A stretch of 64,000 bases of DNA from Candidatus Aenigmatarchaeota archaeon (GTDB lineage Archaea; Aenigmatarchaeota; Aenigmatarchaeia; CG10238-14; SpSt-28): NCBI GenBank assembly GCA_039000985.1, contig JAWBMD010000003.1, forward strand, positions 5,979-69,978, given 5' to 3'. A program made the translations under genes and the position numbers. Below are positions 30,394 through 59,562 of this stretch, one piece after another (position 1 is the stretch's first letter; every line of letters starts with the position of its first letter). The notes beneath the pieces were generated by a model. That model ran no database searches. It was not told where the DNA came from and saw only the letters and a program-made list of their open reading frames with translations.

Positions 30394-30491
30394 GCCGGTG
30401 TAGTTGAGCGGTTAAAACGCCACGCTCATATTGAATGAGCTTCGATAAATGAGATACGTGGAGGTCGAGGGTTCGAATCCCTCCACCGGCA
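30394..30491 (+). tRNA. Elongator tRNA-Met(CAU) (Ile2-CAU not excluded) with a 25-nt intron at 37/38 (30431-30455)
   Basis: GCCGGTG/CACCGGC acceptor. Anticodon arm CCACG-CTCATA[intron]A-CGTGG. Intron ATGAG pairs with exon CTCAT (BHB-like). T arm GAGGG-TTCGAAT-CCCTC. Confidence 0.85.
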
Positions 30492-30493
30492 AA

Positions 30494-30594
30494 GCCCCAG
30501 TAGCTCAGTTTGGATAGAGCGGCGCCCTTCTAATTTAGAAGGTTTGAAAAAAGATGAAAGGCGTAGGTCGCGGGTTCAAATCCCGCCTGGGGCA
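30494..30594 (+). tRNA. tRNA-Arg(UCU) with a 26-nt intron at 37/38 (30533-30558)
   Basis: GCCCCAG/CTGGGGC acceptor. Anticodon arm GCGCC-CTTCTA[intron]A-GGCGT. Intron TAGAAGG pairs with CCTTCTA. T arm GCGGG-TTCAAAT-CCCGC. Confidence 0.88.
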
Positions 30595-30647: not shown

Positions 30648-30980
30648 TTAGGACGGTTCAATTCCTCGTAACGAACAAGCATCCTGAAAACTACTCTCAC
30701 TGCAACTAATTTTAAAATTACCACTGTCTGGATCTTTATTTGCGCTAATTCCAAATCCATTAAGAATATTTTCCGAACAGTGAAGTCCAGAAATTGTTAC
30801 TTCTTTATTCCAACCACTTAGCTTACACTGACCACATGCAGTTGTTACAGCTGCATTACACATCTCTAAATTAGGTCCTGCCTTAACAAATACAGAATAT
30901 AGAAGATAGCCTACTATGGCAAGCACTATTATTCCTAATATTAATAAAATTATTTTTTGAACTGCTACACCTTTGGACAT
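30648..30980 (-). CDS. Small anchored Cys-rich protein with pilin-like N-terminus
   Basis: 110 aa. MSKGVAVQKIILLILGIIVLAIVG anchor resembles the N-terminus of ORF 56687..57574. 8 Cys in the ectodomain. Confidence 0.6.
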   Translation of the reverse strand: MSKGVAVQKIILLILGIIVLAIVGYLLYSVFVKAGPNLEMCNAAVTTACGQCKLSGWNKEVTISGLHCSENILNGFGISANKDPDSGNFKISCSESSFQDACSLRGIEPS

Positions 30981-39098: not shown

Positions 39099-39764
39099 TT
39101 ATTTTTTATAAATTTTTATTTCATCAAAAAAATCATTTTGAATACAATCTATTAATCCTTTCTTATCTAAATGTAAAACTGGAACAAAATAACTTACTAT
39201 ATTTTCAACATTCCATTCATCAACTATTTCATCAAACAAAATAAATCCTTTATCTTTGCACAAATTAACTATTTTTTCATAAACATCATTCATTCTTTTT
39301 TCAAAATCCTTAGCTTGACCAATTCTTATTTCTATTTGTCTTCTTCTTTCCCAAATTCTTCTTTCCTTTTTCTCTTTTAGTTCAATAACTTTTTTTAAAG
39401 CAATTATTAAATCATTCAAAGTTATAGGACCTTTTGGAATTCTTCTAATAGGGCTTTCAACATAAACTTCAATTTTTTCTACTGTTTCAACTTTTTCCTC
39501 TTTTGTTACTTCCTCCTCTTCCTTCTTTCTATCCAAATATTCCACTTTTATTCTAAGCAAAATAGAAGCAACAAAAATAACTTTAGCCGGTATTCTGAAA
39601 TCCAACTCAACTACTTTATTCAAAAAATTTATAAAACCATTACAAAGTTTAACTAAATCTATATTCCATGGGTCTAAATTTTCTAAGCTAACAACATAAT
39701 AAATAATTTCTTCCCAGCTTTCTTTTTTTATTATTTCACTTATTATGTTTTCTTCCAATATCAT
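39099..39764 (-). CDS. scpA: Segregation and condensation protein A (kleisin)
   Basis: 221 aa, ScpA-like N- and C-terminal regions. ATGA overlap with the smc stop. Confidence 0.8.
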   Translation of the reverse strand: MILEENIISEIIKKESWEEIIYYVVSLENLDPWNIDLVKLCNGFINFLNKVVELDFRIPAKVIFVASILLRIKVEYLDRKKEEEEVTKEEKVETVEKIEVYVESPIRRIPKGPITLNDLIIALKKVIELKEKKERRIWERRRQIEIRIGQAKDFEKRMNDVYEKIVNLCKDKGFILFDEIVDEWNVENIVSYFVPVLHLDKKGLIDCIQNDFFDEIKIYKK

Positions 39765-42700
39765 TTTGGTAATTCCAAGCTTACTATTTTTGATTCCCCA
39801 TCTTCCATGCTTACTCCATATATATAATCAGCAAACTTAAGAGCTTCTTCGTTATGCGAAATAACTATGAATTGAGAATCTTTTGAAAATTCTTTAATGA
39901 CTTTCCAAATTAGTGTTGTGTTTTCTTTATCTAATGCTGCATCTATTTCATCAAACAAATAAAATAATGATGGTTTATATCTTTGAATAGCTAAAATAAA
40001 AGCTAAAGCTGTTACAGTTTTTTCTCCACCAGATAAAGAATCTATGTTAACAAGCTTTTTACCTGGAAAACTTGCTCTTATTAGTAAGCCGCTATCAATA
40101 TTATCCTTTTCCTCAAGCTCAAGAGAAGCCTCCCCACCATTAATCCTTTTAAATATTTCATTAAAATTGTTACTTATTGCATTTAATGTTGAAATAAAAA
40201 CTTCTTTTCTCCTTTTCTCTATTTCATCAATCATTTTTAAAACAGCATCCCTTTCTTCACTAATTTTTTTAAATTTCAAAAAAATTTCTTCATATTCAGC
40301 TTTAAATTTCTCTAGCTCTTCTTCTGCTCTAAAATTAATGGTACCCAAGCTTTCTATCTTATTTGAAACTACTTTTATTTCATTTTCTATTTCGTTCAAA
40401 CTTTTATTTACAAAAACAACATCTTTATATTGTTGCAACTCCATTCTAACATTTTCAAAATCACTTTCTACTTTACCTTTATGAAAATTCAACTTGTTTA
40501 TTTCATTTTGTAATTTGATTTTTTCTTCAATTAATTTCCTTCTTTTTTCTTTTAATGTTTCTAAAAGGATTGCAGAATTTTTTCTTAAGCTTTCTAAATT
40601 TTCCAAATCTTTACTTTCTTCTTTTGCTATTTCAAATTTAGATAATTCTTTTAAAATTTTTTCTCTTTCTTCTTTTAGTTTATTTAATTCCTCAATAGCT
40701 ATTTTTCTTTTTTCAATAAGCTCATCTATATTAAACTCTTTTTTCCACGATTTTTTAACTAAATAACCACCAGTTAAAGCACCACTTCTCTCTATTAAAT
40801 CACCATCTAATGTAACCATTCTAACTTCTCCAATTCCTATTTTTTCAACCGTATCTAAATCCTTAACAATTATTGTATTTCCAAATACAAATTCTATAGC
40901 ATTTCTAAATTTTTCATCAAATTTTAACAAATTGCTAGCAATACCGATATAACCATCTATGTTTTTAAATTTACTATCATCAATAACTTTACCCTTTATT
41001 TTATCTAATGGTAAAAATGTAGCTCTACCAATTTTATTATCTCTTAAATATTCTATACACAATCTAGCAATTTTAAAATCTTCAACAACTAAATCGTAAT
41101 AATGATTTGCGGCAGCTATCTCTATTGCATATTCTAATTCTCTAGGAAATTTAATTAAAGAAGATATAGTACCAAAAACTCCTCTCAAATTTAATTTTAA
41201 TACTGCTTTTACAGGAGAAGGAATTTCTTCTATTTGCTTAGCTTCAGCCCTCGCTATGCTTTCATTAATGTTTTCTATTTCTCTTTCTTTAATTGTTATT
41301 TTGCTTTCTATTATACTTAAAGAATTTTGTAGTTTAATATATTCTTTTTCTTTTTCTAAGTTTTTGTAAGCGTTATAAATTTTTTCACCAATATCTTTAA
41401 GCACATTTTCATTTTTCTCTATTTCTTGTTCTATTTTTTCACTTTCTTCTTCAATTTTCTTTTTCCTTTCTTCTAAAATATTCAAATTTTTTTCAATACT
41501 TTCTAAATTTTTTAATAAATATTCTTCTTTTTTCTTCCAATACGATGCTTTTAAAGTAATTAGAGTTTTTTGGAGAGATTTGTAAGTATCAGCTATTTCT
41601 TTCTCTCTTTTCAATTTTTCTAAAATTTGATTTTTTTGATTAACAACAATTTCAACCTCTTTTAATTTTTGATTAACAAATTCCAAATCTTTTAGAGCTT
41701 TCTCCTTTTTTTCATTATACTCGCTTATTCCACAAATTTCATCTATTATTGCTTTTCTCTCTAAAGGATTCATTTCTATTATGTTTGCAACATCTCCTTG
41801 CAAAACTATATTATGTCCATCTGGATAAATTCTTACTGAAGATAAAACTTGTAAGATTTTTTCTCTTGTTGTAGTAATACCATTAAGTTTATAAACAGTA
41901 AATCCCTTTCTATTTACTTTTCTTGTAATTGTTATTTCTTGAGAATCTTCACCAAATATTTTATTTGAGTTATCGAAAGCTATAGAAACAGAAGCAATTT
42001 CTGCAGGTTTTTTATTTGGTGAGCCATGAAAAATTAATTCAGATAATCTATCTGCACGCAAACTTTTTGCACTAGTTCTTCCTAGAACAAAGCAAATAGC
42101 ATCTATTATATTGCTATTATGAACAATAATGTTATTAGCAATAAAATTGTGAAAATCTTTTATGCACAAATCATAAACCCATTTCTTTTTGTTTTCTTGT
42201 TTAATTTCAACGATTTCATCCCAAAATATATCAGATTTAATAAGCAAGTTAGCTAAATTTTCATCAATATCTTCTAAATTTAAATTTATATCATTACAAT
42301 CTCTCAAAACAGCTATTTTTTCTCCAATCCTTAAATATTTTGATGGAATAGAAACTATTGAATTATTTCTTAAAACAAAAAATGGATGAGAATAAGTTAC
42401 GGTCAATTCTTTACCACTAGCTGTTATTATTTTCAATAATTTGCAATCTATTCTTTTTATAAATGCATCTATTTTTCTTTCCTCAACTTTCAAAGTAAAT
42501 GGATTTATAGAAAGAACTTTATAATTGTTTGGATTATCTATACAGAAAACCCCATCAGATAGTTTTTTTATTTCTGAGCAGTTTTTTAAAGATTCATCAA
42601 CAATTTCTTCAATAGTTTTATATTCCCAATTAGATAAAGCTACTAATGTATTACCATCAACACATTTACCACTTCCATTTGGTCCTGTTATAATAGTTAT

Positions 42701-42772
42701 ACCTTTTTTAAATGGAATAGATATTCTTTTATTAAAGCTTTTAAATCCTTGCAATGTTAACTTTGTTATCAT
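39761..42772 (-). CDS. smc: SMC chromosome-segregation ATPase, intein-containing precursor (about 820 aa after splicing)
   Basis: Walker A GPNGSGK|...|SNIIDAICFVLG interrupted by an intein. Long coiled coils, hinge region, signature LSGGEKT, Walker B LFDEIDAALD. Confidence 0.93.
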   Translation of the reverse strand: MITKLTLQGFKSFNKRISIPFKKGITIITGPNGSGKCVDGNTLVALSNWEYKTIEEIVDESLKNCSEIKKLSDGVFCIDNPNNYKVLSINPFTLKVEERKIDAFIKRIDCKLLKIITASGKELTVTYSHPFFVLRNNSIVSIPSKYLRIGEKIAVLRDCNDINLNLEDIDENLANLLIKSDIFWDEIVEIKQENKKKWVYDLCIKDFHNFIANNIIVHNSNIIDAICFVLGRTSAKSLRADRLSELIFHGSPNKKPAEIASVSIAFDNSNKIFGEDSQEITITRKVNRKGFTVYKLNGITTTREKILQVLSSVRIYPDGHNIVLQGDVANIIEMNPLERKAIIDEICGISEYNEKKEKALKDLEFVNQKLKEVEIVVNQKNQILEKLKREKEIADTYKSLQKTLITLKASYWKKKEEYLLKNLESIEKNLNILEERKKKIEEESEKIEQEIEKNENVLKDIGEKIYNAYKNLEKEKEYIKLQNSLSIIESKITIKEREIENINESIARAEAKQIEEIPSPVKAVLKLNLRGVFGTISSLIKFPRELEYAIEIAAANHYYDLVVEDFKIARLCIEYLRDNKIGRATFLPLDKIKGKVIDDSKFKNIDGYIGIASNLLKFDEKFRNAIEFVFGNTIIVKDLDTVEKIGIGEVRMVTLDGDLIERSGALTGGYLVKKSWKKEFNIDELIEKRKIAIEELNKLKEEREKILKELSKFEIAKEESKDLENLESLRKNSAILLETLKEKRRKLIEEKIKLQNEINKLNFHKGKVESDFENVRMELQQYKDVVFVNKSLNEIENEIKVVSNKIESLGTINFRAEEELEKFKAEYEEIFLKFKKISEERDAVLKMIDEIEKRRKEVFISTLNAISNNFNEIFKRINGGEASLELEEKDNIDSGLLIRASFPGKKLVNIDSLSGGEKTVTALAFILAIQRYKPSLFYLFDEIDAALDKENTTLIWKVIKEFSKDSQFIVISHNEEALKFADYIYGVSMEDGESKIVSLELPK
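42116..42664 (-). mobile_element. Mini-intein (183 aa) inserted in the SMC Walker A loop
   Basis: Starts with Cys (CVDGNTLV) right after GSGK. Block B TYSH; ends IVHN followed by Ser (+1). No endonuclease-sized insert or LAGLIDADG motif seen. Confidence 0.85.
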
Positions 42773-43893: not shown

Positions 43894-43980
43894 TTGCCTG
43901 ATATGTGGAAATCTCGTTTCACCATAAATTCTTCATCGCTCAGAATCAACCCAAGCTTTCATTATTTTTTCCACATATCT
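43894..43980 (-). other. 87-nt insertion in the 5' strand of 16S helix 45 (putative intron)
   Basis: Splits CCGTA|CGGGAACGTGCGG. The ends form a 12-bp stem, GATATGTGGAAA/TTTCCACATATC. Confidence 0.65.
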
Positions 43981-44396
43981 TACGGCTACCTTGTGACGAC
44001 TTACCCCCCCTCGCAGAGGTTCTACTCGACTATTTCTTCAATAGCCTTGTAGAACCTCTACTCGGTTGGGTTGACGGGCAGTGTGAGCAAAGGACAGGGA
44101 CGTATTCAGCGAACGTTAGTGACGTCCGCTTACTAGGGATTCCAGCTTCACGAGGGCGAGTTACAACCCTCGATCTGAACTGAGCACGCTTTTTAGGGAT
44201 TTGCTCTCCCTTTCGGGTTCGCATCCCATTGTAGCGTGCATTGTGTCGCGCGTGTAGCCCAGCGCAATAGGGGCATACGGACTTCGACCAGCTAGAGAGC
44301 ATTTATTAAACTTTTCATGTCTTCAAAAATTTTATCAAAAGCTTGAAGTTCTTCGCGATTAAAACTATCTAATTTTCTCTTAGTTTCTATTAGTCC

Positions 44397-44726
44397 TCAA
44401 ACTTTAATCATTGGAAAATTGAATTTAATTTTGAATCCTTGAAAAGCCAATTTTTGAATTTGTTCTTTTATTTCTCTTTTTGAGAAGGAATTTATTTCTT
44501 TGCATTCTATCACTATGTTACTGTCAGGTAAGAAAAAGTCAACTATAAGATTTTCTTTGAGTGGAAAGTTAACATGGAACCCAATATTCTTCTCCGATAG
44601 CGCTTTCTCCAGTAATCTCTCTTGTGGTGCACGTCTCTTTTTGAGACTTTCTATAGCTCCTTTTCTTCTTGCTTTTTGTGCTGCATAACTTTTTCCATGT
44701 ACTTTAAACCATTCGATAGCTTCCAT
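44397..44726 (-). CDS. PD-(D/E)XK (Vsr/DUF559-like) nuclease encoded in the 16S intron; candidate homing endonuclease
   Basis: 109 aa. ERLLEKALSEKNIGFHVNFPLKENLIVDFFLPDSNIVIECKE gives D...ExK spacing as in DUF559/Vsr-fold nucleases. The TGA stop is followed by 34 more in-frame codons. Confidence 0.6.
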   Translation of the reverse strand: MEAIEWFKVHGKSYAAQKARRKGAIESLKKRRAPQERLLEKALSEKNIGFHVNFPLKENLIVDFFLPDSNIVIECKEINSFSKREIKEQIQKLAFQGFKIKFNFPMIKV

Positions 44727-44766
44727 CTGAGATTTCTAAATCTATTTATTACTTCAGATAAAATTA

Positions 44767-44949
44767 CTACCCGCATTCTACTCTGAATTTTATTAACCAA
44801 TTTTCTGCAGTTTTAAATTGCATTGTTTTTATTTTACCTAACTCGTACTTGTTGATATTTTTGGAAGGACTTCCTACGAATTTCTCAAACTCATTTTGTG
44901 ATAATCCTAATGCTAACCTTAATATCAATAGTTTTTGAGGGTTTAACAT
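44767..44949 (-). CDS. XRE-type helix-turn-helix protein encoded in the 16S intron
   Basis: 60 aa. LILRLALGLSQNEFEKFVGSPSKNINKYELGK fits the Cro/C1 HTH pattern. Lies upstream of the nuclease ORF on the rRNA sense strand. Confidence 0.55.
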   Translation of the reverse strand: MLNPQKLLILRLALGLSQNEFEKFVGSPSKNINKYELGKIKTMQFKTAENWLIKFRVECG

Positions 44950-45200
44950 TAGAATTTCTGGAGAAATCTCCGTAAAGTTTTTGTTTCTATCTTTACTTCT
45001 TTAAAGAGTTTTCTTATTTTATCCTCTGGAATTATAGTTTTTGGTATATATATTATACTGATGTACGACCATTTAAATCTTACTGACCAACTCTCTAGCT
45101 GTCTACCGTCGCCCACACCTTCCTCCCACTTATCGCGGGCAGTCTCCCATGAGTGCCTCCTTTCTTTCGAAAGGAGTAGCAACATGGGATGTGGGTCTCG

Positions 45201-45231
45201 CTTCAACCCTGACCAGAAATACTCTGGTCAA
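45201..45231 (-). other. About 31-nt hairpin insertion in the 16S 1100 region
   Basis: Splits the conserved AACGA|GCGAGACCC block. Forms TGACCAGA..TCTGGTCA. Confidence 0.45.
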
Positions 45232-45239
45232 GTTCGTTA

Positions 45240-45271
45240 GTCTCATCAAGCTATTTTTGCTCGATGATTTA
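45240..45271 (-). other. About 32-nt hairpin insertion in the 16S 1090 region
   Basis: Lies between GTCAAGTCGG and CTAACGA. Forms TCATCGAGC..GCTTGATGA. Confidence 0.45.
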
Positions 45272-45566
45272 ACCGACTTGACGGCACGCCTCACGGTACG
45301 AGCTGACGGTGGCCATGCACCACCGCTCGGCTTGTCTGGTAAGCCCTTCAGACTGACCATCATCCTGCCGTCTGCGCTGGTAAGATTTCCGGTGTCGAAT
45401 CCAATTGAACCGCACGACCCACCCCTTGTGTGTCCTCCCGCCAATTCCCTTAAGTTTCATCCTTTCGGACGTACTCCCCAGGCGGCCCACTTAACACCTT
45501 CGCTCCGGCACAGGGTACTCCCAAGGAGTACCCCACACCAAGTGGGCATCGTTTACGCCCAGGACT

Positions 45567-45646
45567 TTCCCGCGCAGATGGGGAGCAGTTCATTTCTCAA
45601 AGGATTAGATATTCTTCATATAATCAGAAGATACTCCCAACCACGC
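45567..45646 (-). other. 80-nt insertion in the 16S 785-805 region (putative intron)
   Basis: Splits GGATTAGATACCCCGGT|AGTCCTGGGCGTAAACGATG. Confidence 0.65.
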
Positions 45647-45727
45647 ACCGGGGTATCTAATCCCGATCGCTCCCCTGGGTTTCGTCCCTCACCGTCCGGA
45701 CTGTTCCAGGCAGCCGCCTTCGCCACT

Positions 45728-45924
45728 CACCCAACAGAGGTCGGCTTAAAAAAGACTGTTAGGAGTTTCTCTATAAAAAATAAAAACGTTGTTTTCTTTT
45801 TTCCAAGTAAATTATTTGGCAACTCCTCTAAAAATTGTATTTTTTTTATTGTTAGAATTTCAATAAGTCTTTTAGTCAAAGCTCGAAGCGACTATAATTA
45901 TTGACCGCCAACACTCTGCTGACT
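45728..45924 (-). other. About 197-nt AT-rich insertion in the 16S ~720 region (putative intron)
   Basis: Splits GGACCACCAGT|GGCGAAGGCGGCTGCC. The junction is ambiguous by 3 nt (ACT repeat). No intact ORF. Confidence 0.65.
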
Positions 45925-46238
45925 GGTGGTCCCCATAGGATTAACGGATTTAACCCCTACCCTATGGGTACCGCTGCCCTCTCCCAGCCGCTAGACTAGC
46001 AGTATCTCCCCCAAGCTCACCAGTTTACTGGTGAATTTCAAGGGAGACTTACTAGTCCGGCTACGAACGCTTTAGGCCCAATATTCGTGCTCACCACTTG
46101 GGGCGCGGGTCTTACCGTGGCAGCTGGCACCCGTCTTGCCCACCCCTTATTCGCCCAACCGTTAACATTGGGCAAAAGCTCCTTACCAAAAGGTAAGAAG
46201 CACTCCGGCTACCCTCATCGGGCGTTAACCCATTGTGA

Positions 46239-46273
<35 letters not shown>

Positions 46274-46477
46274 CTCATGTCTCAGAGTCCATCTGGGGGC
46301 TCCCACTTCCATGGCCCCTACCCGTTATAGCCTTGTGGAGCTATTACCTCCACAACAAGCTGATAGGGGATAGTCTCATCCTCGAGCGGCTTCGAACGCC
46401 CCTTTGATATGGAGACATTCCAGTACTCCATATCTATGGGGTATTAGCCCCAGTTTCCCGGGATTATCCCCTTCGAG

Positions 46478-46512
46478 CCAAAAGTGATAGAAATCACTTA
46501 TGGTCTCTCGAG
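46478..46512 (-). other. About 35-nt hairpin insertion near 16S position ~135 (mini-intron or expansion)
   Basis: Lies between duplicated TCGAG pentamers. Forms the hairpin ACCATAAGTGAT..ATCACTTTTGG. Confidence 0.45.
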
Positions 46513-46635
46513 GGTAGATTAACTACCCATTACGCAGCAGTACGCCGAGGGCTTGCCCCTCACGGCTTGCATGGCTTAGTCGTAGCCGGATAGCAGTGAG
46601 CTCTGGTGGGATCAACCAGCATCGAGAATGGCGGG

Positions 46636-46801: not shown

Positions 46802-47269
46802 CTATAAATTTATTTTACCTCCCCTTATATCTCTTATAATTTCTTTGGGATATTTTCCTTCAACTCTTATACCATTTAAAGATTGAGCAGTACCAAGTAT
46901 AGAAATTACAGATTTTTCTAATGGTAAATCTGGAAATTTTGCTTTTGCAATTTTTTTAATTTGCTCTAATGTTAAATTTGCTAAAACTTTGTTTTTGTCA
47001 TCTACTTTAGCTACTTCTATTTTAGCTTCTTTTTTTATTAAACTTGATGCTGGTGGAATGCCCACTTCTATTCTATATTCTTTCGTTTTCTTATCAACAA
47101 TTATTTTAACTGGAACTTGCATACCTTCATAATCTTTTGTTATCTCATTAATTTTTTGAAAGATTTCTCCAATATTAAGCTTTAACGCTGAAAACTTTGG
47201 AGCTGTTGTTGGACCTGGAGATGCTTTTCCACCTTCTACCAAAATATTTATCTCTTCCTTTTCCTCCAT
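46802..47269 (-). CDS. rpl11: 50S ribosomal protein L11
   Basis: 155 aa. VEGGKASPGPTTAPKFSALKLNIGEI typical of L11. Confidence 0.92.
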   Translation of the reverse strand: MEEKEEINILVEGGKASPGPTTAPKFSALKLNIGEIFQKINEITKDYEGMQVPVKIIVDKKTKEYRIEVGIPPASSLIKKEAKIEVAKVDDKNKVLANLTLEQIKKIAKAKFPDLPLEKSVISILGTAQSLNGIRVEGKYPKEIIRDIRGGKINL

Positions 47270-50200
47270 AAAATTAAAATTGAAATTATTAATATTTGAG
47301 CTATTCCAAAAATTCCATAATCTGAAAGAGAAACTTGAACATATTTTATTTTTACTCTTTCAAAAGCATAAACATTATTATTAGTTTTAAAAAGTGCTTT
47401 TACTTCTATTTCTGCGTCCGCAGAAAATGGTATGAATAATTGAGAAGTTATTTCATCAAATTCATTTGGTTTTAATTCTTTGCTAAAATTTTTTGATAAC
47501 ATTAACTCAACATTGCCACTAACTTTCTTCCAACTTATATTTAAACTATCTAAAACAATTCCTTTGTTTATAACTTTTATCGGAAGCAAAATTTTTCCAA
47601 TTGTTGATATAATGTCTTTTTGAACTATTAAATCTAAATCAAAAGGTCTGAATTTATATTCTGTTATATTATTTATTCTGCTATCCAAACCATCTTCTAC
47701 TCTGCAAACTATTTTGTTATAAATACTAATACACTTATTTCCAGAACATTCAACATCCAAGATAAAATAGGGATCGTAAATAGTACAAACACTACCTACT
47801 TTAGATGTACATGTTTGAGCAAGTGAGCAATCTTCATATTTAGGATTGCAATTAAGCCAGCATTGGAGTGTTGAATTCGAATAAAAATATTCGCCATTTA
47901 TATAATCAAAGTATTTTATATCGGCATTTATAAATAGTTGGTTATCTTTCACATATAAACTAAAATCTTTAAATATTATGAGAGGTAGATAAACAACTAC
48001 ACTATAACTTGCTAATGGCTCAAAACCTTTACTATCTACACCAATATATCCTATTCTACAAGGATTACCCTCAATACTATTAGGACAAATATAATCTGGA
48101 GAATCACAAACAGCATTTATGTAATCTACATAAACATTATATTCTCCAATTTCATTAAAAGTATAGCTATTTGTAACTTGTTGACCACCAGATCTCCAAT
48201 TCAAATCACAAGCCCATAAAAAGCCCGATGTTCTACTTTCATTTATTAAATACTCTCTATCTCGAGAATAAATATAAGAAGGAGGAGGACAACCAGCATA
48301 ATTGTTATGTAATAATCCAACTGGAATTTTTCCTTTATATATCCAAACTAATGTTCCAGGGTAAACTTGTGCAGTTACTCCATTATTACATTCTTCTGTA
48401 ACTGTTGATGAAATCTTAAAACTTATACTTTCTCCCAATCTACAATAATATTTTCCATTTAAATATAAACAGTTGTTTAAAAATTCCAATGTTGGTTGTT
48501 CTCTTATGTGTCCACCATGAGAACATGTAGCACTTGTGTCACATCGATTTAGTATAGAAAATGGTTTAACTAACTGAGAAAAATTTATTCCTTTTAAAGT
48601 ATAGTTAACAATCAAATTATAACTACCTTGCTGAACATTTCCACCAACATAAGCTTCGCAACAATGCCTATCAAAACACAACCATCCCTCTGTACCATAG
48701 TATAAATTACAGTTTTCATTTAGTATATAGGTCGAACTGTCATTCAAAAATATAGTTCCGTTTATAGATTTTTTGTCATCTTCATTTAAGCATTCTGAAA
48801 AATTGGCATATATTGGTATGGAGGAATATGGACAAGATGAGCTAAAATCTCCATAAATAACAAACTCTTTTACAGGTTTAAAAGGACAACCAGTATTTGG
48901 ATCTATTAAATTATTATAAACATTGCATAACCACGAGTTTGGTGTAGAGCATTTATCAATATTATTTGGAACACCATCCATATCAGAATCAAATAAACTA
49001 TAAGAAAAATATGGTGTAGAGTTCCATTCTTCTATCAAATTTTTTGCATACCATTTATAAGTGAATGAGGTGACACCAAATCCTCGTTCAACAGATTTCC
49101 AATATATTCCATATGTATTATTACCATCTATTGTATAATTTGACAAAATTCCTGTTATGTTTGTCTCTAAAATAACAGAACTAGCATTAATAAAACCAGT
49201 ACCGTTAATAGAATCATTCCAGAAAATAGTAAAATTATATCTATTCCATCCTATTCTTTTTATTTCAGCATCATCCCAAATAGGGATAGAAAAAGAAAAA
49301 GATATTAAAAATAAAATCAATAATAAAGGTAATGCTGGTTTCGAGATTTTCTTCATATATAATATTATTCCAAAAACAAAAGTTAAAATAATTATAACAA
49401 TGAGAAGTATTGTTGAAAATGTATTTAAATCTATTAAATTTTTTGAAAATTCAAATGTTTTAGCAAAGCCAGAAGAAAGATCTTTTAAAACGACAAATAT
49501 TCTAAAGCTTTTTGTTGGAATTTTCAACAAATATTCTTTTGAAATAAATTCTTGTCTACTAAAAATTAAGTTATTATTGTTATCTTTAACATCTAAATAA
49601 ATTGGTCTTTTTAGATAAGAACTTGTTTGAATTTTCAAAACAACCTCTTCTTTATTCCAATCGACTAGTTGAATTAAGTAATCGTTTTCATACTGTGAAA
49701 AATCATAAAATAAACAATAATTTTCATACCCAATATCTGCACAAACGTAAAACTTGTTAATATTTTTATCTATTTTATCTTTAATTTCAATTATATTATA
49801 AAGAATGTTATCATTAGAGCTTAGCTTTTCTATAACTTTTTTCCATTCTTTAATTATATTTCTTTTTTCATCTAGCAATGAAATTTTTACATTTATATTA
49901 GTTATTACAGGTTTCGTGTAGTGATCTGGAGAGGTACCAATTTTAACAAATATTGAAAACTCATCATTCTTAACTAATGGTAATTTATCTATTAAAATTT
50001 TTCTTATTTTGGCTGTTTCTCCAAGAACAACAACTCTACTTCTATAAATAGAATAAATATTTCCAGCTTCATCAAAAACTCTTAATAAAATAGAATATGC
50101 ATCTGGCTTTTTAGGAGCTCTAAAATTAAAATCTATAAAATTTGCTCCAGTTTTTAATTTAAATGGAATTTTGGTAGAGAATTCAGAAGTACCGGTTAAT

Positions 50201-50835
50201 AAACAATTAACATCATCCCATTTACAAATTAAAACGTCAAGATAACCATTAAAGTCATTATTTGATTCAAAATAAATCTTTGCATTTATAATAGAATCAG
50301 GTTGAGCAGGAAATCCTATTGGCCCTTTGTAATTATTAAAACTAGTTTTCGTTCTTAGTATTTTTACTTTGGTTTTTTGAAATTCATTTTCAACAAAAAA
50401 ACTTTTATATTTACCTGGGGAAAATATGTAATGAATACCTAAAGATGGAGCTATCGGGTCTGAAATATAAACATCAACTCTATAGTTACCTTTAGCTAAA
50501 ATTATATATTTTTCTATCTTTTTAACTATTTTCCCATATGGAAGCAAAACTATATCATCAACAACAAATTCATCTATTATATTATCACAATCAGATAATT
50601 GAGAAGGATATGTTGGCTCACCACAACCCTCTACTATATCTATAACAATTCTTTGATTTGTTAAAACAAAATTTTCTAGGTTTCTCAATTCTAAGTCAAA
50701 AGATAATTTATTTTCAAAATAAACTAAACCAGTTATAGATACATCAACGCTATTAAACAAAGAAGCTACATCAGCAAATGAAAATGGGAATATTAAAAAT
50801 AATGAAATTAATATTTTTCTTACTTTCATTATCAT
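47248..50835 (-). CDS. Very large Cys-rich surface protein (1195 aa) with signal peptide, internal TM pair and C-terminal TM anchor
   Basis: N-terminal signal, mid-protein TILLIVIIILTFVFGIILY-MKKISKP-ALPLLLILFLISFSFS, many N-x-S/T sequons and Cys. Ends ILILWRKRKR. Confidence 0.7.
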   Translation of the reverse strand: MIMKVRKILISLFLIFPFSFADVASLFNSVDVSITGLVYFENKLSFDLELRNLENFVLTNQRIVIDIVEGCGEPTYPSQLSDCDNIIDEFVVDDIVLLPYGKIVKKIEKYIILAKGNYRVDVYISDPIAPSLGIHYIFSPGKYKSFFVENEFQKTKVKILRTKTSFNNYKGPIGFPAQPDSIINAKIYFESNNDFNGYLDVLICKWDDVNCLLTGTSEFSTKIPFKLKTGANFIDFNFRAPKKPDAYSILLRVFDEAGNIYSIYRSRVVVLGETAKIRKILIDKLPLVKNDEFSIFVKIGTSPDHYTKPVITNINVKISLLDEKRNIIKEWKKVIEKLSSNDNILYNIIEIKDKIDKNINKFYVCADIGYENYCLFYDFSQYENDYLIQLVDWNKEEVVLKIQTSSYLKRPIYLDVKDNNNNLIFSRQEFISKEYLLKIPTKSFRIFVVLKDLSSGFAKTFEFSKNLIDLNTFSTILLIVIIILTFVFGIILYMKKISKPALPLLLILFLISFSFSIPIWDDAEIKRIGWNRYNFTIFWNDSINGTGFINASSVILETNITGILSNYTIDGNNTYGIYWKSVERGFGVTSFTYKWYAKNLIEEWNSTPYFSYSLFDSDMDGVPNNIDKCSTPNSWLCNVYNNLIDPNTGCPFKPVKEFVIYGDFSSSCPYSSIPIYANFSECLNEDDKKSINGTIFLNDSSTYILNENCNLYYGTEGWLCFDRHCCEAYVGGNVQQGSYNLIVNYTLKGINFSQLVKPFSILNRCDTSATCSHGGHIREQPTLEFLNNCLYLNGKYYCRLGESISFKISSTVTEECNNGVTAQVYPGTLVWIYKGKIPVGLLHNNYAGCPPPSYIYSRDREYLINESRTSGFLWACDLNWRSGGQQVTNSYTFNEIGEYNVYVDYINAVCDSPDYICPNSIEGNPCRIGYIGVDSKGFEPLASYSVVVYLPLIIFKDFSLYVKDNQLFINADIKYFDYINGEYFYSNSTLQCWLNCNPKYEDCSLAQTCTSKVGSVCTIYDPYFILDVECSGNKCISIYNKIVCRVEDGLDSRINNITEYKFRPFDLDLIVQKDIISTIGKILLPIKVINKGIVLDSLNISWKKVSGNVELMLSKNFSKELKPNEFDEITSQLFIPFSADAEIEVKALFKTNNNVYAFERVKIKYVQVSLSDYGIFGIAQILIISILILWRKRKR

Positions 50836-50916: not shown

Positions 50917-51498
50917 ATGGAAAGAAAAGAATTAATTGATCTAACATTAGCAATATTATTAGCTACTTTTATTTTTTCATTTCCTAATCTAAGAATAGAG
51001 AATTTTTTCAATTATTTAATAATAGTTTTAATATCTTTTTTGCCACATGAGCTAGCTCATCGTTATTTAGCTAGAAAATTTGGTTATATAGCTTTTTTCC
51101 AAATTTGGCCACAGGGTATACTTATTGCACTTTTAACTTTAATAGCTAGTTATGGTTTAATAAAATTCATAGCTTTAGGGGCTGTTATGATATATCCAAT
51201 ATCTTTTAGAGGTGGATTTTTAATTGAAAAAAGAATATCAATAAAGGAAAATGCACTAATTTCATTAGCAGGTCCTTTAGTTAATATAATTATTTGTATT
51301 TTATCGCTACTAATATATCTAGCAACAAAAATTAATCTTCTTTTATACATAGCTCAAGTAAATGCTTGGATAAGTGTTTTTAATCTTCTTCCTATTTTTC
51401 CATTAGATGGGAGCAAAATATTTGTTTATAGTTATAAAAAATGGATTTTAATATTTTTCTTTTCTTTTATGTTGCTTGTTTTAACCTATATAGGATAA
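50917..51498 (+). CDS. M50-family (site-2 protease-like) membrane metalloprotease, short form
   Basis: HELAH zinc motif and NLLPIFPLDGSKI. 193 aa. Confidence 0.8.
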   Translation: MERKELIDLTLAILLATFIFSFPNLRIENFFNYLIIVLISFLPHELAHRYLARKFGYIAFFQIWPQGILIALLTLIASYGLIKFIALGAVMIYPISFRGGFLIEKRISIKENALISLAGPLVNIIICILSLLIYLATKINLLLYIAQVNAWISVFNLLPIFPLDGSKIFVYSYKKWILIFFFSFMLLVLTYIG

Positions 51499-52209
51499 AG
51501 TTTCCCTTTCCTCTTTTTTCTCTGTAGTAAAGCTTTTAATAAGTTTTCTATATTCTTTTCTTTGATTTTCAACTATTTTATCCAAATCTGACAAATCTAT
51601 TTCTATATTAAGAAATTTTGATAGAACTTCTAGTAATTTTCTACATCCGCCATAATCGTTTTCAAAAAATTTATATGTATCAACCAATATAAGAGATGAC
51701 TTATAGCCATTTTTAACCGAAAAAGCGTAATTCAAACCATTGCAACCTATAATTGTTGAAAATTGTCTGTCATTTTTCAAATTAAGTTCTTTTAAACTTT
51801 TTTCAATTTCTGATGAATTTGTATAAAAGTAAACTTCTGGATTTTCATTTAAAAAATCAATTATCATTGCTCCAAGAGAAATGAAATACTTTACTTTGAA
51901 TTTTTTTGTGAAATTTATTAATTCTTTTGAAAGTTTGTATTGAAAAAAAGATAAACTAGGTTGAAATTCTGAATATACAACAAAAATATTATTTTTGTTA
52001 AAAATTTTTACACATGGAAAATCAACTTCTTTACCTTCTATTATTGAAAATGGTGGAAAATCAAAACTATATATTTTGGCGACTAATTCACCTTTTATTT
52101 TATCTGCAAGAATTTTAGATGCTAAAAGACCAACATTTCCTGTTCCGGCAAATCCACTAACAAATATAGATTCATCTTTTATTTCTGGTATTTTTATGAT
52201 TTCTATCAT
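51481..52209 (-). CDS. PAC2-family proteasome assembly chaperone-like protein
   Basis: 242 aa. SGFAGTGNVGLLASKIL N-terminal pattern. Ends LSYIG. Confidence 0.7.
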   Translation of the reverse strand: MIEIIKIPEIKDESIFVSGFAGTGNVGLLASKILADKIKGELVAKIYSFDFPPFSIIEGKEVDFPCVKIFNKNNIFVVYSEFQPSLSFFQYKLSKELINFTKKFKVKYFISLGAMIIDFLNENPEVYFYTNSSEIEKSLKELNLKNDRQFSTIIGCNGLNYAFSVKNGYKSSLILVDTYKFFENDYGGCRKLLEVLSKFLNIEIDLSDLDKIVENQRKEYRKLIKSFTTEKKEERETLSYIG

Positions 52210-55722: not shown

Positions 55723-56328
55723 TCAAACACTAACTTTATATACAGATGGCAAAACTTCAATTATTTTCTTCTCATCCAAAAGCTCAGAAATTACTTTATC
55801 AATAAAAGAGAGTGGTATTTGAAATGAATCTATTATTTTTCCTATTTCTACACCATTCCCATCATCCATTTCTCTTATAAATTTAAATATTAGCTGTTTA
55901 TAATCCGTTAAATCTTTTTTTGTTGAAAAATTTTTTAAAAACTCTATAGCTTCTTGTTTTCTTCTAGCTTCTGTTTTTATATCAACAACACCAACAGCTT
56001 CTCCAGCAATATAAATCTCTCCATTATACTCTCTAACTTTTCCAATAACAGTAACAATACTACCAATTTCTAAATCTTTAATTAATTTAACGTTTTTATC
56101 AAAAAATTTTACTCTTATTGATTCTGTCATATCATTAACAATTAAAAATCCATAGCTTTCATCTTCAGCAATATATTTATCCAACATCGTTCCAACTATG
56201 TTTACTCTAGATACTTTAATTTCTTGTGGAGTTATTACATATGCAGCTTTTTTATTTTCTCTATCTGCTTCTTTAAAAATTCCAGAAATTAAATCAACAA
56301 CTCTAACTTTTTTAGCAACTTCTCTCAC
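55723..56328 (-). CDS. OB-fold nucleic-acid-binding protein with C-terminal winged-helix (RPA32/Rpa2-like)
   Basis: 201 aa. VNIVGTMLDKYI...VTVIGKVREYNGEIYIAGE OB pattern, then a wHTH-like tail. Confidence 0.5.
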   Translation of the reverse strand: MREVAKKVRVVDLISGIFKEADRENKKAAYVITPQEIKVSRVNIVGTMLDKYIAEDESYGFLIVNDMTESIRVKFFDKNVKLIKDLEIGSIVTVIGKVREYNGEIYIAGEAVGVVDIKTEARRKQEAIEFLKNFSTKKDLTDYKQLIFKFIREMDDGNGVEIGKIIDSFQIPLSFIDKVISELLDEKKIIEVLPSVYKVSV

Positions 56329-56357
56329 TATTAAATTTTAAAAATTTAAATTATTTT

Positions 56358-56537
56358 ATGGGTGTTAGTACTCCAATGCTTATATTGATGTCATTAATAA
56401 TTGGAATAATAATTCTTGTTTTAGCTGTTTTGTTTATGTACCAAACATCTGGTAGCTTAAAAAAAGCATTTGAAGAAATGATAGAAGGTGTTAAAAGTTT
56501 CATTAGAAGTTTGTTCAGGTTAATATTTCCATTTTAA
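56358..56537 (+). CDS. Tiny membrane protein (59 aa), first gene of a six-gene operon; absent from the ORF track
   Basis: Hand translation gives MGVSTPMLILMSLIIGIIILVLAVLFMYQTSGSLKKAFEEMIEGVKSFIRSLFRLIFPF. The TAA is directly followed by the next ATG. Confidence 0.55.
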   Translation: MGVSTPMLILMSLIIGIIILVLAVLFMYQTSGSLKKAFEEMIEGVKSFIRSLFRLIFPF

Positions 56538-56687
56538 ATGGTAGCAATAAAAACAATAATAGAATTTATTATAATAATTCTCGCTATTTTTATAGTTGTT
56601 TTTTTAATCATTACTAATTGGAATACATTAGCTGATAGAATAATGAGCTGGATAGAGGTATTGGGTGGATTACTTAGAATAAGTTAA
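56538..56687 (+). CDS. Tiny membrane protein (49 aa), MVAIK-type N-terminus; absent from the ORF track
   Basis: MVAIKTIIEFIIIILAIFIVVFLIITNWNTLADRIMSWIEVLGGLLRIS. TAATG overlap with the next gene. N-terminus paralogous to 57574..57759. Confidence 0.55.
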   Translation: MVAIKTIIEFIIIILAIFIVVFLIITNWNTLADRIMSWIEVLGGLLRIS

Positions 56688-57574
56688 TGGGCGGTATCAG
56701 TATTAGAAAAATCGTAGCTTTGATTATTGGTATTTTAGTACTAGTAATTGGTTTTTTTATTTCATCTTTAATAATAAAGGGAGCTAGGATTTGTGATCCA
56801 GAAAATCCAGATATTCTTAAATGTCCTATGTTTTTTAATCCTTTTTATATAGAACCAAACTATTGTAATCATGTATTTGGTAGTGAGGATGGTGATATAA
56901 CCCATATAAAACCACCGGTAGAATTTTGCAACATGTGCTGCGCGCTTTGGGATTCTGACTGTTTAAATAAAAAAGATTGCATAGGATGCGTATTTGTAAG
57001 ATGCGATCCAACTATTCTATTTGAAGTACTTAATAAAATATTATCTTCTATTGGTAGTGATTTTGTGCAGTTAAAAGATAAATCTTTTTTTCTTCACTGG
57101 AATGCTAGTGATATGGCCCAATCTTCTATTAGAATAAAGAATCATGCTTATTTATTTGAATCAGTTGGAGATATAGCTAGTGCTTTTGAGTGTTGCGCCG
57201 AAGATAATTGTAACTCCGATAATAAGGATGGAGTTAGAGTAAAAAAGGGAATTCTAGATATTAATAATGTAGATCTTTCATGTGTTCCGTTTTTATTTTT
57301 TTGTCTTTCTCAAGAAGGGGGAAAAAAAACAATAGTGGAAGAAATAACAAGATTGTATTGTGGAATCTCATATAAAAAATGTTTAATGTGTAATAAAGAT
57401 TTTGAAAAAAAGGAAAATACAGCATGGTATGTCTGTACTATTTTCGATTATCCAAAGATTTTAAATAATGGGTTAGAAAGTGGTATAATTAGTGTTAAAC
57501 CAAATACTAAAATAACTATTGATGGGGAAGAATGGTTTTGTAATAAAAATTTTGAATGGGAAAAAATTAAATAA
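56687..57574 (+). CDS. Anchored Cys-rich protein (295 aa)
   Basis: MGGISIRKIVALIIGILVLVIGFF anchor. More than 25 Cys, including CC and CxxC pairs. Confidence 0.7.
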   Translation: MGGISIRKIVALIIGILVLVIGFFISSLIIKGARICDPENPDILKCPMFFNPFYIEPNYCNHVFGSEDGDITHIKPPVEFCNMCCALWDSDCLNKKDCIGCVFVRCDPTILFEVLNKILSSIGSDFVQLKDKSFFLHWNASDMAQSSIRIKNHAYLFESVGDIASAFECCAEDNCNSDNKDGVRVKKGILDINNVDLSCVPFLFFCLSQEGGKKTIVEEITRLYCGISYKKCLMCNKDFEKKENTAWYVCTIFDYPKILNNGLESGIISVKPNTKITIDGEEWFCNKNFEWEKIK

Positions 57575-57759
57575 TGGTAGCTATAAAATCTTTGAGAGAA
57601 ATAGTATTAATGTTAATACTTTTAATTTTCATAATTATAATAGTGTCTTCTATTGTTTTCTATTTAATGAAGCCAAGTAACGATGGAAAAAGTTTTATGG
57701 AAAAGGCAATAGAAAATGTAACAAAAATTGTGAAAGATTTCTTTACTATAAAAAAATAA
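57574..57759 (+). CDS. Tiny membrane protein (61 aa), MVAIK-type N-terminus
   Basis: MVAIKSLREIVLMLILLIFIIIIVSS... Overlapping stop/start on both sides. Confidence 0.6.
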   Translation: MVAIKSLREIVLMLILLIFIIIIVSSIVFYLMKPSNDGKSFMEKAIENVTKIVKDFFTIKK

Positions 57760-58286
57760 TGACACATATTTCTGTTGATTGGACAATTTATATAGCCATA
57801 ATAGCTATGTCAATTATGGTTATAGTACTTTTAGTATTTATTTTGTCAAGATACATCTCTATGGAGCCGTGTATTCAAAAACAAAAAGAAATTATAAATG
57901 AAATATTTAGAATTTACTATGAAGAGATTGTAATTAAAAAGAACAGTGAGGTAATAAAAAGTTTTAAATTAGAACCATTTTGCACTAAATGGATTTTTTC
58001 TCCCTGTAAAGAAAAAGGTGTTTGTACAAAATTCAAAAGTGAAGAAATTTATTGTATAAAGTATTTTCAAATTGGAGATCCAAGAAGATCATTTTTAATA
58101 AAAGTGTGTGAAAAAGATGAAGTATGTAATGCTTTAAATAAAATTTATTTTAATACAAAAGGAATAATAAATACAAGTAAAACTAATGAAATTACCATTA
58201 AAATAATACCTAGTTCAATAGAAAGTATGCAAAGTGGCGATAATATAGATAATAATGAAGATTTAATCGAAACTGGTTGTATATGA
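57759..58286 (+). CDS. Anchored Cys-containing protein (175 aa)
   Basis: N-terminal TM and 9 Cys in the ectodomain. Overlaps the next ORF by 10 nt. Confidence 0.65.
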   Translation: MTHISVDWTIYIAIIAMSIMVIVLLVFILSRYISMEPCIQKQKEIINEIFRIYYEEIVIKKNSEVIKSFKLEPFCTKWIFSPCKEKGVCTKFKSEEIYCIKYFQIGDPRRSFLIKVCEKDEVCNALNKIYFNTKGIINTSKTNEITIKIIPSSIESMQSGDNIDNNEDLIETGCI

Positions 58287-58756
58287 AGAAATTGTTTTTT
58301 TGGTTTTTGCTAGTCGCTTTTATTATAGTTATTTCTATAATGTTTTTCTTTGGTATAGTTGATATTTTCAATAGGCTTTTTACTTGTGGATTTTTATCGA
58401 GCGAAGTTGATGATACTAACATGGATGCTAAATTAAAAGATTCTGTAAAAAGAACAATAAATGTTCCAGCTTGTTTTGATTGGATGCAAGGTCCATGTAG
58501 CATTAAAAATGATTTACCTGATTGGGCAATATTAGAAAATGCAGAAAAGGGTAAAACTTATTCAATTTGTGGTAAAATTAGAGATAAAAACATAATAAGA
58601 TGCTATGATTTTGAAGATGTTTATTGGGATACAAATGGTACTTTATTATCAGGAACTTATACTGTTATTGCTGGTAGATATAAAGTTGTTTTTGATAATG
58701 TTTGTGATTCGGGAAATCAACTAAGTAGTGAAATTTGCTCTAATATAGCATGTTAA
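58277..58756 (+). CDS. Anchored Cys-rich protein (159 aa)
   Basis: N-terminal TM, 8 ectodomain Cys, ends ...CSNIAC. Confidence 0.65.
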   Translation: MYMKKLFFWFLLVAFIIVISIMFFFGIVDIFNRLFTCGFLSSEVDDTNMDAKLKDSVKRTINVPACFDWMQGPCSIKNDLPDWAILENAEKGKTYSICGKIRDKNIIRCYDFEDVYWDTNGTLLSGTYTVIAGRYKVVFDNVCDSGNQLSSEICSNIAC

Positions 58757-58785: not shown

Positions 58786-59562
58786 ATGGATACAACAAAA
58801 ATAATAGAATACTCAAGACCAAAACTAAAAAAACCAATATTAATACAAGGTTTAGTTGGAATAGGTAATGTTGGAAGAATTACAGTTGGATTTTTAATAG
58901 ATGAACTAAAAGCAAAAAAATTTGCTGAACTAATATCAAATCATTTCATGCATTTTGTTTTAGTAGATGAAAATTCAGTAGTAAAACCATTAAATAATGA
59001 ATTTTATTGGACAAGAGTTAAAAATAAAGATTTTATTTTATTAACAGGAGATGCTCAGAGTAGCACAACAGAAGGTCATTATGAAATAGCTGAAGAAATA
59101 GTTAGGTTTGCAAAAAAATATGATGTTTCAGAAATAATAACAATAGGTGGGTTAAGTGTTGGTGAAGTTGAAGAACCAAAAGTTATTGGTGCTTCCAATG
59201 ATTTAGAAATGATTAAAAAATATTCTAAATTTGGAGTTGAATTTTCTTATTCCGAAATAGGAACAATTGTTGGAGCTAGTGGTTTGGTTGTAAGTATTGC
59301 AAAATATTATAATATAAAAGCAGTTTGTTTGCTCGGCCAAACAATTGGTTATCCAATAATTCCAGATCCAAAAAGCTCAAAAGCCGTTTTAGAAGTTTTA
59401 GCAAAAGCATTTAATTTGTCATTAGATTTAACAAAACTAAACAAAAAAATAGATGAAATGGAGAGATTTATGAAAAGAATGGAAGAAATACAGAAAAAAG
59501 CTATTGCACAAATGTTTAGACCAGCTACAGAAGAAAAAGAAAAATTAAGATATATTGGATAA
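58786..59562 (+). CDS. PAC2-family proteasome assembly chaperone-like protein (second paralog)
   Basis: 258 aa. QGLVGIGNVGRITVGFLIDEL N-terminal pattern. Ends LRYIG, like 51481..52209. Confidence 0.7.
   Translation: MDTTKIIEYSRPKLKKPILIQGLVGIGNVGRITVGFLIDELKAKKFAELISNHFMHFVLVDENSVVKPLNNEFYWTRVKNKDFILLTGDAQSSTTEGHYEIAEEIVRFAKKYDVSEIITIGGLSVGEVEEPKVIGASNDLEMIKKYSKFGVEFSYSEIGTIVGASGLVVSIAKYYNIKAVCLLGQTIGYPIIPDPKSSKAVLEVLAKAFNLSLDLTKLNKKIDEMERFMKRMEEIQKKAIAQMFRPATEEKEKLRYIG

Follow-up and report, generated by a model that had tools for sequence, protein, structure and literature searches.

This study concerns a run of six small genes, designated A to F, in the genome of a Candidatus Aenigmatarchaeota archaeon (assembly GCA_039000985.1, contig JAWBMD010000003.1). 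The window, meaning the whole stretch of 64,000 nucleotides (nt) that was analyzed, is archaeal, with a guanine-plus-cytosine (GC) content of about 27%, and its genes include those for archaeal 16S rRNA, exosome, proteasome, and RNA polymerase. The original prediction described A to F as an operon of tiny membrane proteins and anchored, cysteine-rich proteins that resembles a pilin set, and regarded it as a candidate host-contact system of a probable episymbiont. The lineage is indeed DPANN.

The six-gene cassette and its conservation

The six genes lie on the same strand between a divergent RPA-like OB-fold gene and a PAC2 gene (Table 1). The predicted coordinates, the lengths of A to E, and the tight junctions all hold. 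From A to F, the junctions read TAAATG (no gap), TAATG three times (1-nt overlap), and ATGA (4-nt overlap). The length of F had to be corrected, as its start is most likely the ATG at 58283, which is also used in the public gene calls (157 amino acids, aa), rather than the TTG at 58277 (159 aa). E is shortened to 141 aa in the public NCBI gene calls (L002 11175-11600, L003 7890-8315), which begin at an internal ATG and lose the anchor; the N-terminal 34 residues of the 175-aa form are kept in four genomes. The intergenic segment ahead of A is presumed to be the promoter region for near-leaderless transcripts. The divergent arrangement of the RPA-like gene and A is found again in L001 and L010, two of the related loci compared below.

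Table 1. Positions of the cassette genes, their neighbors, and the other features discussed in the text (a slash within a protein start marks the putative cleavage site)
Feature	Sequence	Positions	Strand	Description
A	window	56358-56537	+	59 aa; MG/VSTP start, transmembrane (TM) helix, strongly amphipathic C-terminal helix
B	window	56538-56687	+	49 aa; MVAIK..E9 start, TM helix, T-N-W, amphipathic tail
C	window	56687-57574	+	295 aa; MGG/ISIRK start, TM helix, 20-Cys ectodomain; unannotated conserved module at about residues 150-295
D	window	57574-57759	+	61 aa; MVAIK..E9 start, TM helix, amphipathic tail
E	window	57759-58286	+	175 aa; N-terminal anchor, ectodomain with 8 conserved Cys
F	window	58283-58756	+	157 aa; MKK and TM anchor, 8 invariant Cys in the ectodomain, C-terminus rich in beta structure (GTYTV motif)
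Intergenic segment, 29 nt	window	56329-56357		AT-rich, divergent; separates the RPA-like OB-fold gene from A
RPA-like OB-fold gene	window	55723-56328	-	divergent upstream neighbor of A
PAC2 gene	window	58786-59562	+	downstream neighbor of F
110-aa protein	window	30648-30980	-	6 Cys; canonical class III-type start MSKG/VAVQKIILLILGIIVLA
DsbA-like thiol-disulfide oxidoreductase	window	27021-27644	-	membrane-anchored, CPFC; Pfam Thioredoxin_4 4.3e-32, DSBA 2.8e-16
T2SSE-family ATPase	L019	8-3604		about 1200-1260 aa; split by a LAGLIDADG intein
T2SSE-family ATPase	L020	40-3828		about 1200-1260 aa; split by a LAGLIDADG intein
T2SSE-family ATPase	L021	4-3699		about 1200-1260 aa; split by a LAGLIDADG intein

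Each of the six proteins has a single hydrophobic segment of 21-23 residues that begins at residue 4-10, in agreement with the N-terminal hydrophobic helix originally seen in all of them. The stretch ahead of the uncharged hydrophobic core is 3-9 residues long, rather than the 2-4 residues first reported, and it contains K, R, or E in B, C, and D. The three larger proteins are Cys-rich, as had been noted: Cys residues number 20 in C (6.8%), 8 in E (4.6%), and 8 in F (5.1%), compared with 1.1% in the remaining open reading frames (ORFs) of the window. For the tails of the three small proteins, the observed amphipathic moment was reached in 0 (A), 61 (B), and 2 (D) of 2000 shuffles. B and D also share the N-terminal MVAIK and an invariant Glu at position 9, which bears out the similarity first noticed between the 49- and 61-aa proteins. 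In hhalign comparisons, D matched B with a probability of 75% over the first 15 residues, and A matched D with a probability of 47% in the tail. D is likely a paralog of B at its N-terminus and of A in its tail.

In four Aenigmatarchaeota lineages the six-gene set has stayed together, and purifying selection acts on it. Conservation of the operon in related genomes, which the original prediction had named as a check, was found in L001, L010, and L011. L001, whose flanking genes are 95-96% identical to those of the window, has the same six genes with 75-92% aa identity. For A, B, C, E, and F, the ratios of nonsynonymous to synonymous substitution rates (dN/dS) in the comparison with L001 are 0.11-0.27 (0.22 for A and 0.11 for B). 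The ratio for D is 0.82, based on very few changes, and its ORF of 57-61 aa is intact in four genomes. L010, from the Aenigmatarchaeota metagenome-assembled genome SKYB42, encodes proteins of 59, 49, 281, 59, 181, and 154 aa with 43-73% identity to those of the window. A is 90% identical in L001 and 73% identical in L010, and the F homolog of L010 (P0004) is 59% identical. In L010 the RPA-like gene is still located upstream of the cassette and other genes lie downstream; because of this different downstream neighborhood, the cassette appears to behave as a module. The more divergent L011 shows the order C-D-E-F-PAC2, its 5' end being cut by the contig edge. At the PAC2-adjacent site of two other Aenigmatarchaeota there is no cassette, one of them being SKYB42, which has it elsewhere. 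The locus is therefore not universally placed.

The conservation extends to the Cys residues. Across three genomes, C has 16 invariant Cys columns out of 20, E has 8 out of 9, and all 8 of F are invariant. The even numbers and the near-invariance of these residues would fit disulfides. Compared with the housekeeping genes on either side, the cassette shows a severalfold higher rate of evolution. Faster evolution is common among surface proteins.

All six genes are real. This conclusion follows from the conservation of the whole set and from the dN/dS values, not from the hydrophobic run itself. An N-terminal hydrophobic segment is present in about 30% of the ORF calls of the window, and a six-gene run of this type is expected about 0.06 times, so that its occurrence by chance is only mildly unlikely.

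Relatives of the cassette proteins

The first impression that none of the six proteins belongs to a recognized family was borne out. Scans of all six against Pfam, NCBIfam, PHROGs, and PADLOC gave only marginal matches driven by the TM segments: D to a holin Pfam family (E = 0.013) and to an unknown PHROG (0.0016), and A to a tape-measure PHROG (0.0085). Word-indexed searches with C, F, and E against 5.8 billion proteins returned near relatives only, and two different queries found no relatives among 2.9 million viral contigs. A PDB sequence-profile search with the C family gave noise only (E ~0.2).

Distant relatives were obtained with a profile of C. An exhaustive search of 1.84 billion representative proteins returned six proteins at E <= 1e-3, comprising the orthologs in L001 and L011 and four larger proteins of 423-551 aa. 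These larger relatives share the C-terminal two thirds of the C ectodomain, referred to here as the C module, with the pattern N-H-x-Y-[IL]-[WF] .. E-C-C .. C-N-S-D .. G .. W-C .. C-L-L-C .. T-x-W-Y-[VI]-C. Its eight Cys residues do not vary among 12 proteins, which come from at least three lineages. Overall, the C-module relatives are 423-562 aa long and have an N-terminal anchor ahead of the module. The four larger relatives were used as the query of a metagenome scan, and their contigs together with the scan yielded eleven more loci.

The C module is linked to an assembly-type ATPase in L019, L020, and L021 (GC 37-38%). In these loci, an ATPase gene, a gene for a polytopic protein, and then a run of proteins with class III starts are encoded in the same direction. 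The ATPase matches Pfam T2SSE (2e-7) and Intein_splicing (2e-26), and its exteins match the NCBIfam models TadA (3e-28) and FlaI (6.5e-24). The second gene encodes a polytopic membrane protein of 648 aa, which has about nine hydrophobic segments and matches no family. TadC/FlaJ-type platform genes normally occupy the position held here by this gene. The eight proteins that follow all have [KR][GA] and then a hydrophobic domain, their starts being MKG/IAVE, MSKG/IHVS, MKA/FATD, MKG/LTIA, RSKG/ITLT, MKKG/SLLL, MKG/ISVV, and GSKG/LDAP. The C-module protein (525-527 aa, MKG/ISVVV) is the seventh of the eight, and in L020 it is the sixth of the seven that were called. A profile built from only the four Aenigmatarchaeota C orthologs matches these 525-527-aa MKG/ proteins at E = 1e-17. 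Judged by its composition, L019-L021 is a type IV filament locus. C is the only cassette protein with homologs inside ATPase-containing loci (L019, L020, and L021). As a separate observation, the intein in the TadA/FlaI-type ATPase of L019-L021 is about 520 aa long and carries a LAGLIDADG endonuclease domain.

Further relatives occur together in L015 (GC 57%), which, along with L017, L016, and L013, encodes an expanded run of as many as 13 proteins, N-anchored and mostly rich in Cys, with a class I lysyl-tRNA synthetase (LysRS) after them. L015 contains a B homolog of 49 aa (profile E = 1.3e-10) and a C-module protein (E = 6e-12). E is more weakly related to a group consisting of gene 9 of L015 and gene 2 of both L017 and L016 (hhalign 81%, E = 1.2e-5), whose members start with MKG/ or MKA/. 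Strict class III starts are found in L015 itself (MAKG/AISI, SARG/LAAS, and SAKG/VLAS). Directly upstream of the L015 B homolog, in the position that A holds in the window, lies the gene for a 67-aa protein that starts with MAKG/AISIPP. A would be the equivalent of this protein by position and architecture only, as the sequence similarity is not significant. B, the E-like proteins, and the 110-aa protein described below tie to type IV filament loci through the L015 cluster only, and there is no ATPase on the L015 contig. The LysRS proteins of L015 and L017 are 54-55% identical to the LysRS of the window. The LysRS gene comes right after the cluster in both loci (L015 9300-10682, L017 6151-7731); the GC contents are 57% versus 29%, and the LysRS proteins are mutually 73-76% identical.

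The window also encodes, away from the cassette, the 110-aa protein with a canonical class III-type start. Its gene stands alone, with tRNA genes on one side and a helicase gene on the other. The protein, with the N-terminus MSKG/VAVQKIILLILGIIVLAIVGY, is a homolog of the product of gene 7 of L015 (..SSARG/LAASTVVFMVLGIIVLA.., E = 1.7e-8), and the -1 Gly, the LGIIVLA core, and the next Cys of the two proteins all align. The N-terminal domain of the 110-aa protein scores 63-67 against the C orthologs, compared with 27-45 against A, B, D, E, and F, and with 20-36 against seven N-anchored window proteins from outside the cluster. A Gly at +12 from the putative cleavage site is present in the 110-aa protein, in C (window and L010), and in the L015 gene 7 product. 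The C orthologs start with MKG/I (L001), MKSG/V (L010), and MGG/I (window); their Gly is aligned with the -1 Gly of the MSKG/ and ARG/ relatives, and the G-I-[IL]-V core is in the same register. The 110-aa protein is a probable pilin-like partner of the cassette. The presence of such a textbook class III-type protein in the same genome indirectly suggests that a prepilin peptidase is in use, with C as a possible substrate or partner.

The DsbA-like gene of the original prediction is confirmed by its Thioredoxin_4 and DSBA matches. It is plausible that the enzyme helps C, E, F, and the 110-aa protein to form disulfides.

Some further features of the window were recorded. Three genes without a Pfam match lie next to Kae1 at 18421-19858 (-), encoding a 154-aa coiled-coil-like protein, a 198-aa protein starting with MKT/QSEIVALV, and a 126-aa protein starting with MKS/QVLIIQFV. 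The K-[ST]/Q starts of the latter two are similar to the +1 Gln sites found in EppA-type pilin substrates, and the three genes may represent a second pilin-like set. A 1195-aa protein (47248-50835, -) is probably a large surface protein: it has a signal-like segment at the N-terminus and further hydrophobic segments internally and at the C-terminus, contains 2.8% Cys, and matches no Pfam family. A 105-aa protein (11511-11828, -) contains 6.7% Cys and has a lipobox-like start (..IIFLSGC). The SMC-like ATPase of 1003 aa at 39761-42772 (-) has an intein-like insertion after Walker A, as judged by eye (GPNGSGK/CVDGNTLV ... IVHN/SNIIDAICF, the slashes here marking the insertion boundaries). The archaeal 16S rRNA match at 43961-46622 (-) spans 2,662 nt against a model of 1,478 nt, which corresponds to about 1.2 kb of insertions (introns or expansion segments). 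The tRNA matches at 5699-5827, 30394-30491, and 30494-30594 are 98-129 nt long and probably contain introns. The PAC2 gene downstream of F has a paralog within 8 kb at 51481-52209 (-); both are proteasome assembly chaperone-like, and both products end with ..L(S/R)YIG.

Possible nature of the cassette

We propose that the six genes form a cassette of type IV filament surface proteins, pilin-like and of the class III signal type, in an archaeon of thermophilic type, and that this cassette is encoded apart from the assembly machinery. We hold this proposal with about even confidence. A to F may be distant, unannotated relatives of type IV pilus (T4P) subunits and are candidates for "missing pilins", as DPANN genomes with T4P machinery and without annotated pilins have been reported (PMC9563170). 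In archaeal T4P, both Cys-rich minor pilins and pilin loci apart from the ATPase/TadC loci have been described (PMC4858521). The resemblance to a pilin set seen in the original prediction is partly upheld by the C relatives beside an ATPase and by the L015 cluster; it did not extend to the strict signal motif, to a Pfam pilin match, or to machinery genes in the window.

According to this proposal, the N-terminal hydrophobic domain would insert the proteins N-in. The subunits A, B, and D would consist of helix only, the TM helix running into an amphipathic helix, and C, E, and F would carry disulfide-stabilized extracellular heads oxidized by the DsbA-like enzyme. Processing and assembly together with the MSKG/ protein would be performed by a prepilin peptidase, a TadA/FlaI-type ATPase, and a platform protein encoded elsewhere. 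The product could be a short adhesive filament or a pseudopilus. C might then be an adhesin, at the tip or as a minor pilin, that plausibly serves to attach the cell to a surface or a host, and a role in host contact is what we infer for the cassette as a whole.

Several observations weigh against this proposal, the first group of which concerns the signal. None of the six proteins passes a strict FlaFind-type pattern (K, R, D, or E at -2 and G or A, also S, at -1, directly before the hydrophobic domain), so the pilin-like leaders first suggested did not appear in this check. A and the window C have no charged residue at -2, and their uncharged leaders of 2-3 residues would be unusually short. 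G, A, or S at -1 is a general requirement for processing, and a charged -2 residue is critical for some peptidases only (PMC4371748). Under this looser -1 rule, A (MG/), B (MVA/), C (MGG/), and D (MVA/ and MIG/) could qualify, and the G or A at residue 2-3 of these four is kept across genomes. E (MTH or MSH) and F (MKK) have no G, A, or S at the would-be -1 position; their L011 orthologs start with MGA and MG, respectively. The L015 homolog of B has a Glu where B has the Ala. In addition, the flanking charges, considered with the positive-inside rule, are ambiguous or contrary for D and E. Standard motif tools, such as FlaFind-type rules and Pfam, would miss the cassette because the signal appears to be eroded.

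The other points of this kind concern the families and the machinery. Pilin models (Class_IIIsignal, archaeal Pilin_N, and archaellin N-terminal-like) were not matched at Pfam E <= 10 and NCBIfam E <= 0.1. A, D, and F gave no significant profile or hhalign match to the distant cluster proteins, F showing weak similarity only. In L015, L016, and L017, the anchor of the C-module protein is a plain one that lacks K-G, and the module may therefore be carried both by pilin-like proteins and by anchored accessory proteins. AlphaFold2 models of C reached a mean predicted local distance difference test (pLDDT) score of 35.5 with a two-sequence alignment and 45.1 with a seven-sequence alignment; the N-terminal helix alone is confident, and the models are not reliable enough for an ectodomain fold to be read from them. 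No ATPase, platform protein, or A24-type peptidase was found in the 64-kb window or in the other Aenigmatarchaeota loci examined; both tblastn with the L020 ATPase and the 648-aa protein and a search for the GxGD motif in multi-TM ORFs were empty.

The main rival explanation is a pilin-derived set that no longer builds a filament. With their cleavage motifs eroded, the proteins would be uncleaved and signal-anchored, C, E, and F forming a disulfide-rich surface complex in the membrane (an adhesin or a host-contact patch) and A, B, and D acting as small bitopic partners, and neither a peptidase nor an ATPase would be needed. We consider this explanation possible but on the unlikely side. The strict motif is missing in all six proteins, and K-G is replaced by G-G, T-H, S-H, or K-K in orthologs of proteins for which MKG/ or MKA/ is seen in distant relatives. 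An N-in orientation is not favored by the charges of D and, in part, of E, and machinery genes are absent nearby. Moreover, the alternation of small and large genes, coupled in translation, suggests partners of fixed stoichiometry. Against it stand the G or A retained in A, B, C, and D and the canonical MSKG/ homolog of the same cluster family in the same genome, which argues for continued use of a peptidase. C and the MSKG/ protein have also kept their hydrophobic domains in register.

It is doubtful, in our view, that the six proteins are pilin descendants operating outside the canonical rules. They could have leaders of 2-3 residues that are processed by a relaxed peptidase, or they could form an unprocessed, anchored, disulfide-rich, non-filamentous host-contact complex. 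If the first option is true, these would be the shortest class III leaders known, some of them uncharged. If the second is true, three helix-only and three head-bearing subunits would represent a new use of pilin parts in a DPANN episymbiont.

A lineage-specific envelope complex unrelated to type IV filaments, for example one involved in S-layer anchoring, envelope biogenesis, or uptake as an accessory, with the C module as a mobile domain, seems improbable. Such a complex would be in line with the lack of any family-level match for the six proteins and with the detection of distant relatives for B, C, and weakly E only. Many C-family proteins are plainly N-anchored, as are about 30% of the window ORF calls in any case. 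However, the B, C, E-like, and 110-aa families co-occur again in L015 with strict class III proteins, which one shuffled domain would hardly explain. The module protein of L019-L021 itself starts with MKG/ and lies inside a pilin run. The renewed association of three or four independent families in L015 lowers the likelihood of the envelope explanation.

An origin of the six genes as cargo of a virus or mobile element (such as holin-like proteins or membrane proteins of viruses), or as spurious ORFs of AT-rich DNA, can be dismissed as highly implausible: the marginal TM-driven holin and PHROG matches of D and A and the different downstream neighborhood of L010 point in this direction, but the composition of the cassette equals that of its surroundings, the housekeeping flanks show conserved synteny, no integrase or repeats were seen nearby, the viral contigs held no relatives, dN/dS is 0.11-0.27, and the ORFs are intact in four lineages. 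Spurious ORFs are ruled out by the conservation and dN/dS, and a mobile element by the housekeeping flanks and the native composition. Zn-binding cytoplasmic domains were likewise rejected, given that E and F have no CxxC pairs, that the Cys residues are even in number and conserved, and that DsbA is present.

The type IV filament cassette is the explanation that we favor. DPANN archaea depend on physical contact with a host, and their genomes often carry the machinery for pilus assembly yet lack pilins that can be recognized (PMC9563170). The cassette, the 110-aa gene, and the C-module family provide testable subunit and adhesin candidates in Aenigmatarchaeota and related lineages. The C module would constitute a new extracellular Cys-rich domain family.

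Comparison with known type IV systems

Helix-only bacterial pilins, such as Flp/Tad and Geobacter PilA-N, are about 50-60 aa long and consist of a hydrophobic N-terminal helix that continues into an amphipathic segment. A, B, and D resemble these pilins in size and architecture, and a conserved Glu lies close to the N-terminus of B and D. In contrast to Flp pilins, A, B, and D are archaeal, show no sequence similarity, and lack the G/xxxxE[YF] motif, their Glu (in B and D) being located at precursor position 9.

The pilins PilA1-6 of Haloferax volcanii are similar to the cassette in that their genes are not co-located with pilB/pilC (PMC4371748). PilA1-6 share a conserved hydrophobic domain and use a common machinery, which may be compared with the relation between C and the 110-aa MSKG/ protein (PMC4371748). 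They differ in having D- or R-A/VS sites, in belonging to a known pilin family, in not being Cys-rich, and in having no helix-only partners.

The Epd pili of Methanococcus, assigned to type IV filament (TFF) 'System 1', also show parallels, with a very small major pilin alongside several minor ones, some of which are encoded away from the ATPase (PMC3875500, PMC4371748). System 1 has been reported in some DPANN, and its pilin diversity is high (bioRxiv 10.64898/2026.04.22.720090, PMC3875500, PMC4371748). Epd substrates have longer, charged leaders ending in K-G/Q, a Glu at +5, and a match to the Class III signal Pfam family, none of which applies to A to F. The ATPase-linked relatives in L019-L021 have one 648-aa polytopic gene instead of two recognizable platform genes.

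The T4P clades 4B, 4D, and 4E of Thermoproteales likewise contain runs of small and large N-anchored proteins, nearly all with Cys residues expected to form disulfides (PMC4858521). The large signal-peptide proteins of these loci have been proposed as minor pilins or adhesins (PMC4858521). The cassette differs from them in its DPANN origin, its eroded class III motifs, and its three helix-only members of 49-61 aa, and the searches of its proteins gave no sequence relationship to a described arCOG or Pfam family.

The kind of system to which the cassette would belong, a type IV filament pilin set, is already known. New are the unannotated families, the N-termini, which are eroded and ultra-short, the three helix-only proteins of 49-61 aa that are encoded in between Cys-rich ones, and the DPANN setting.

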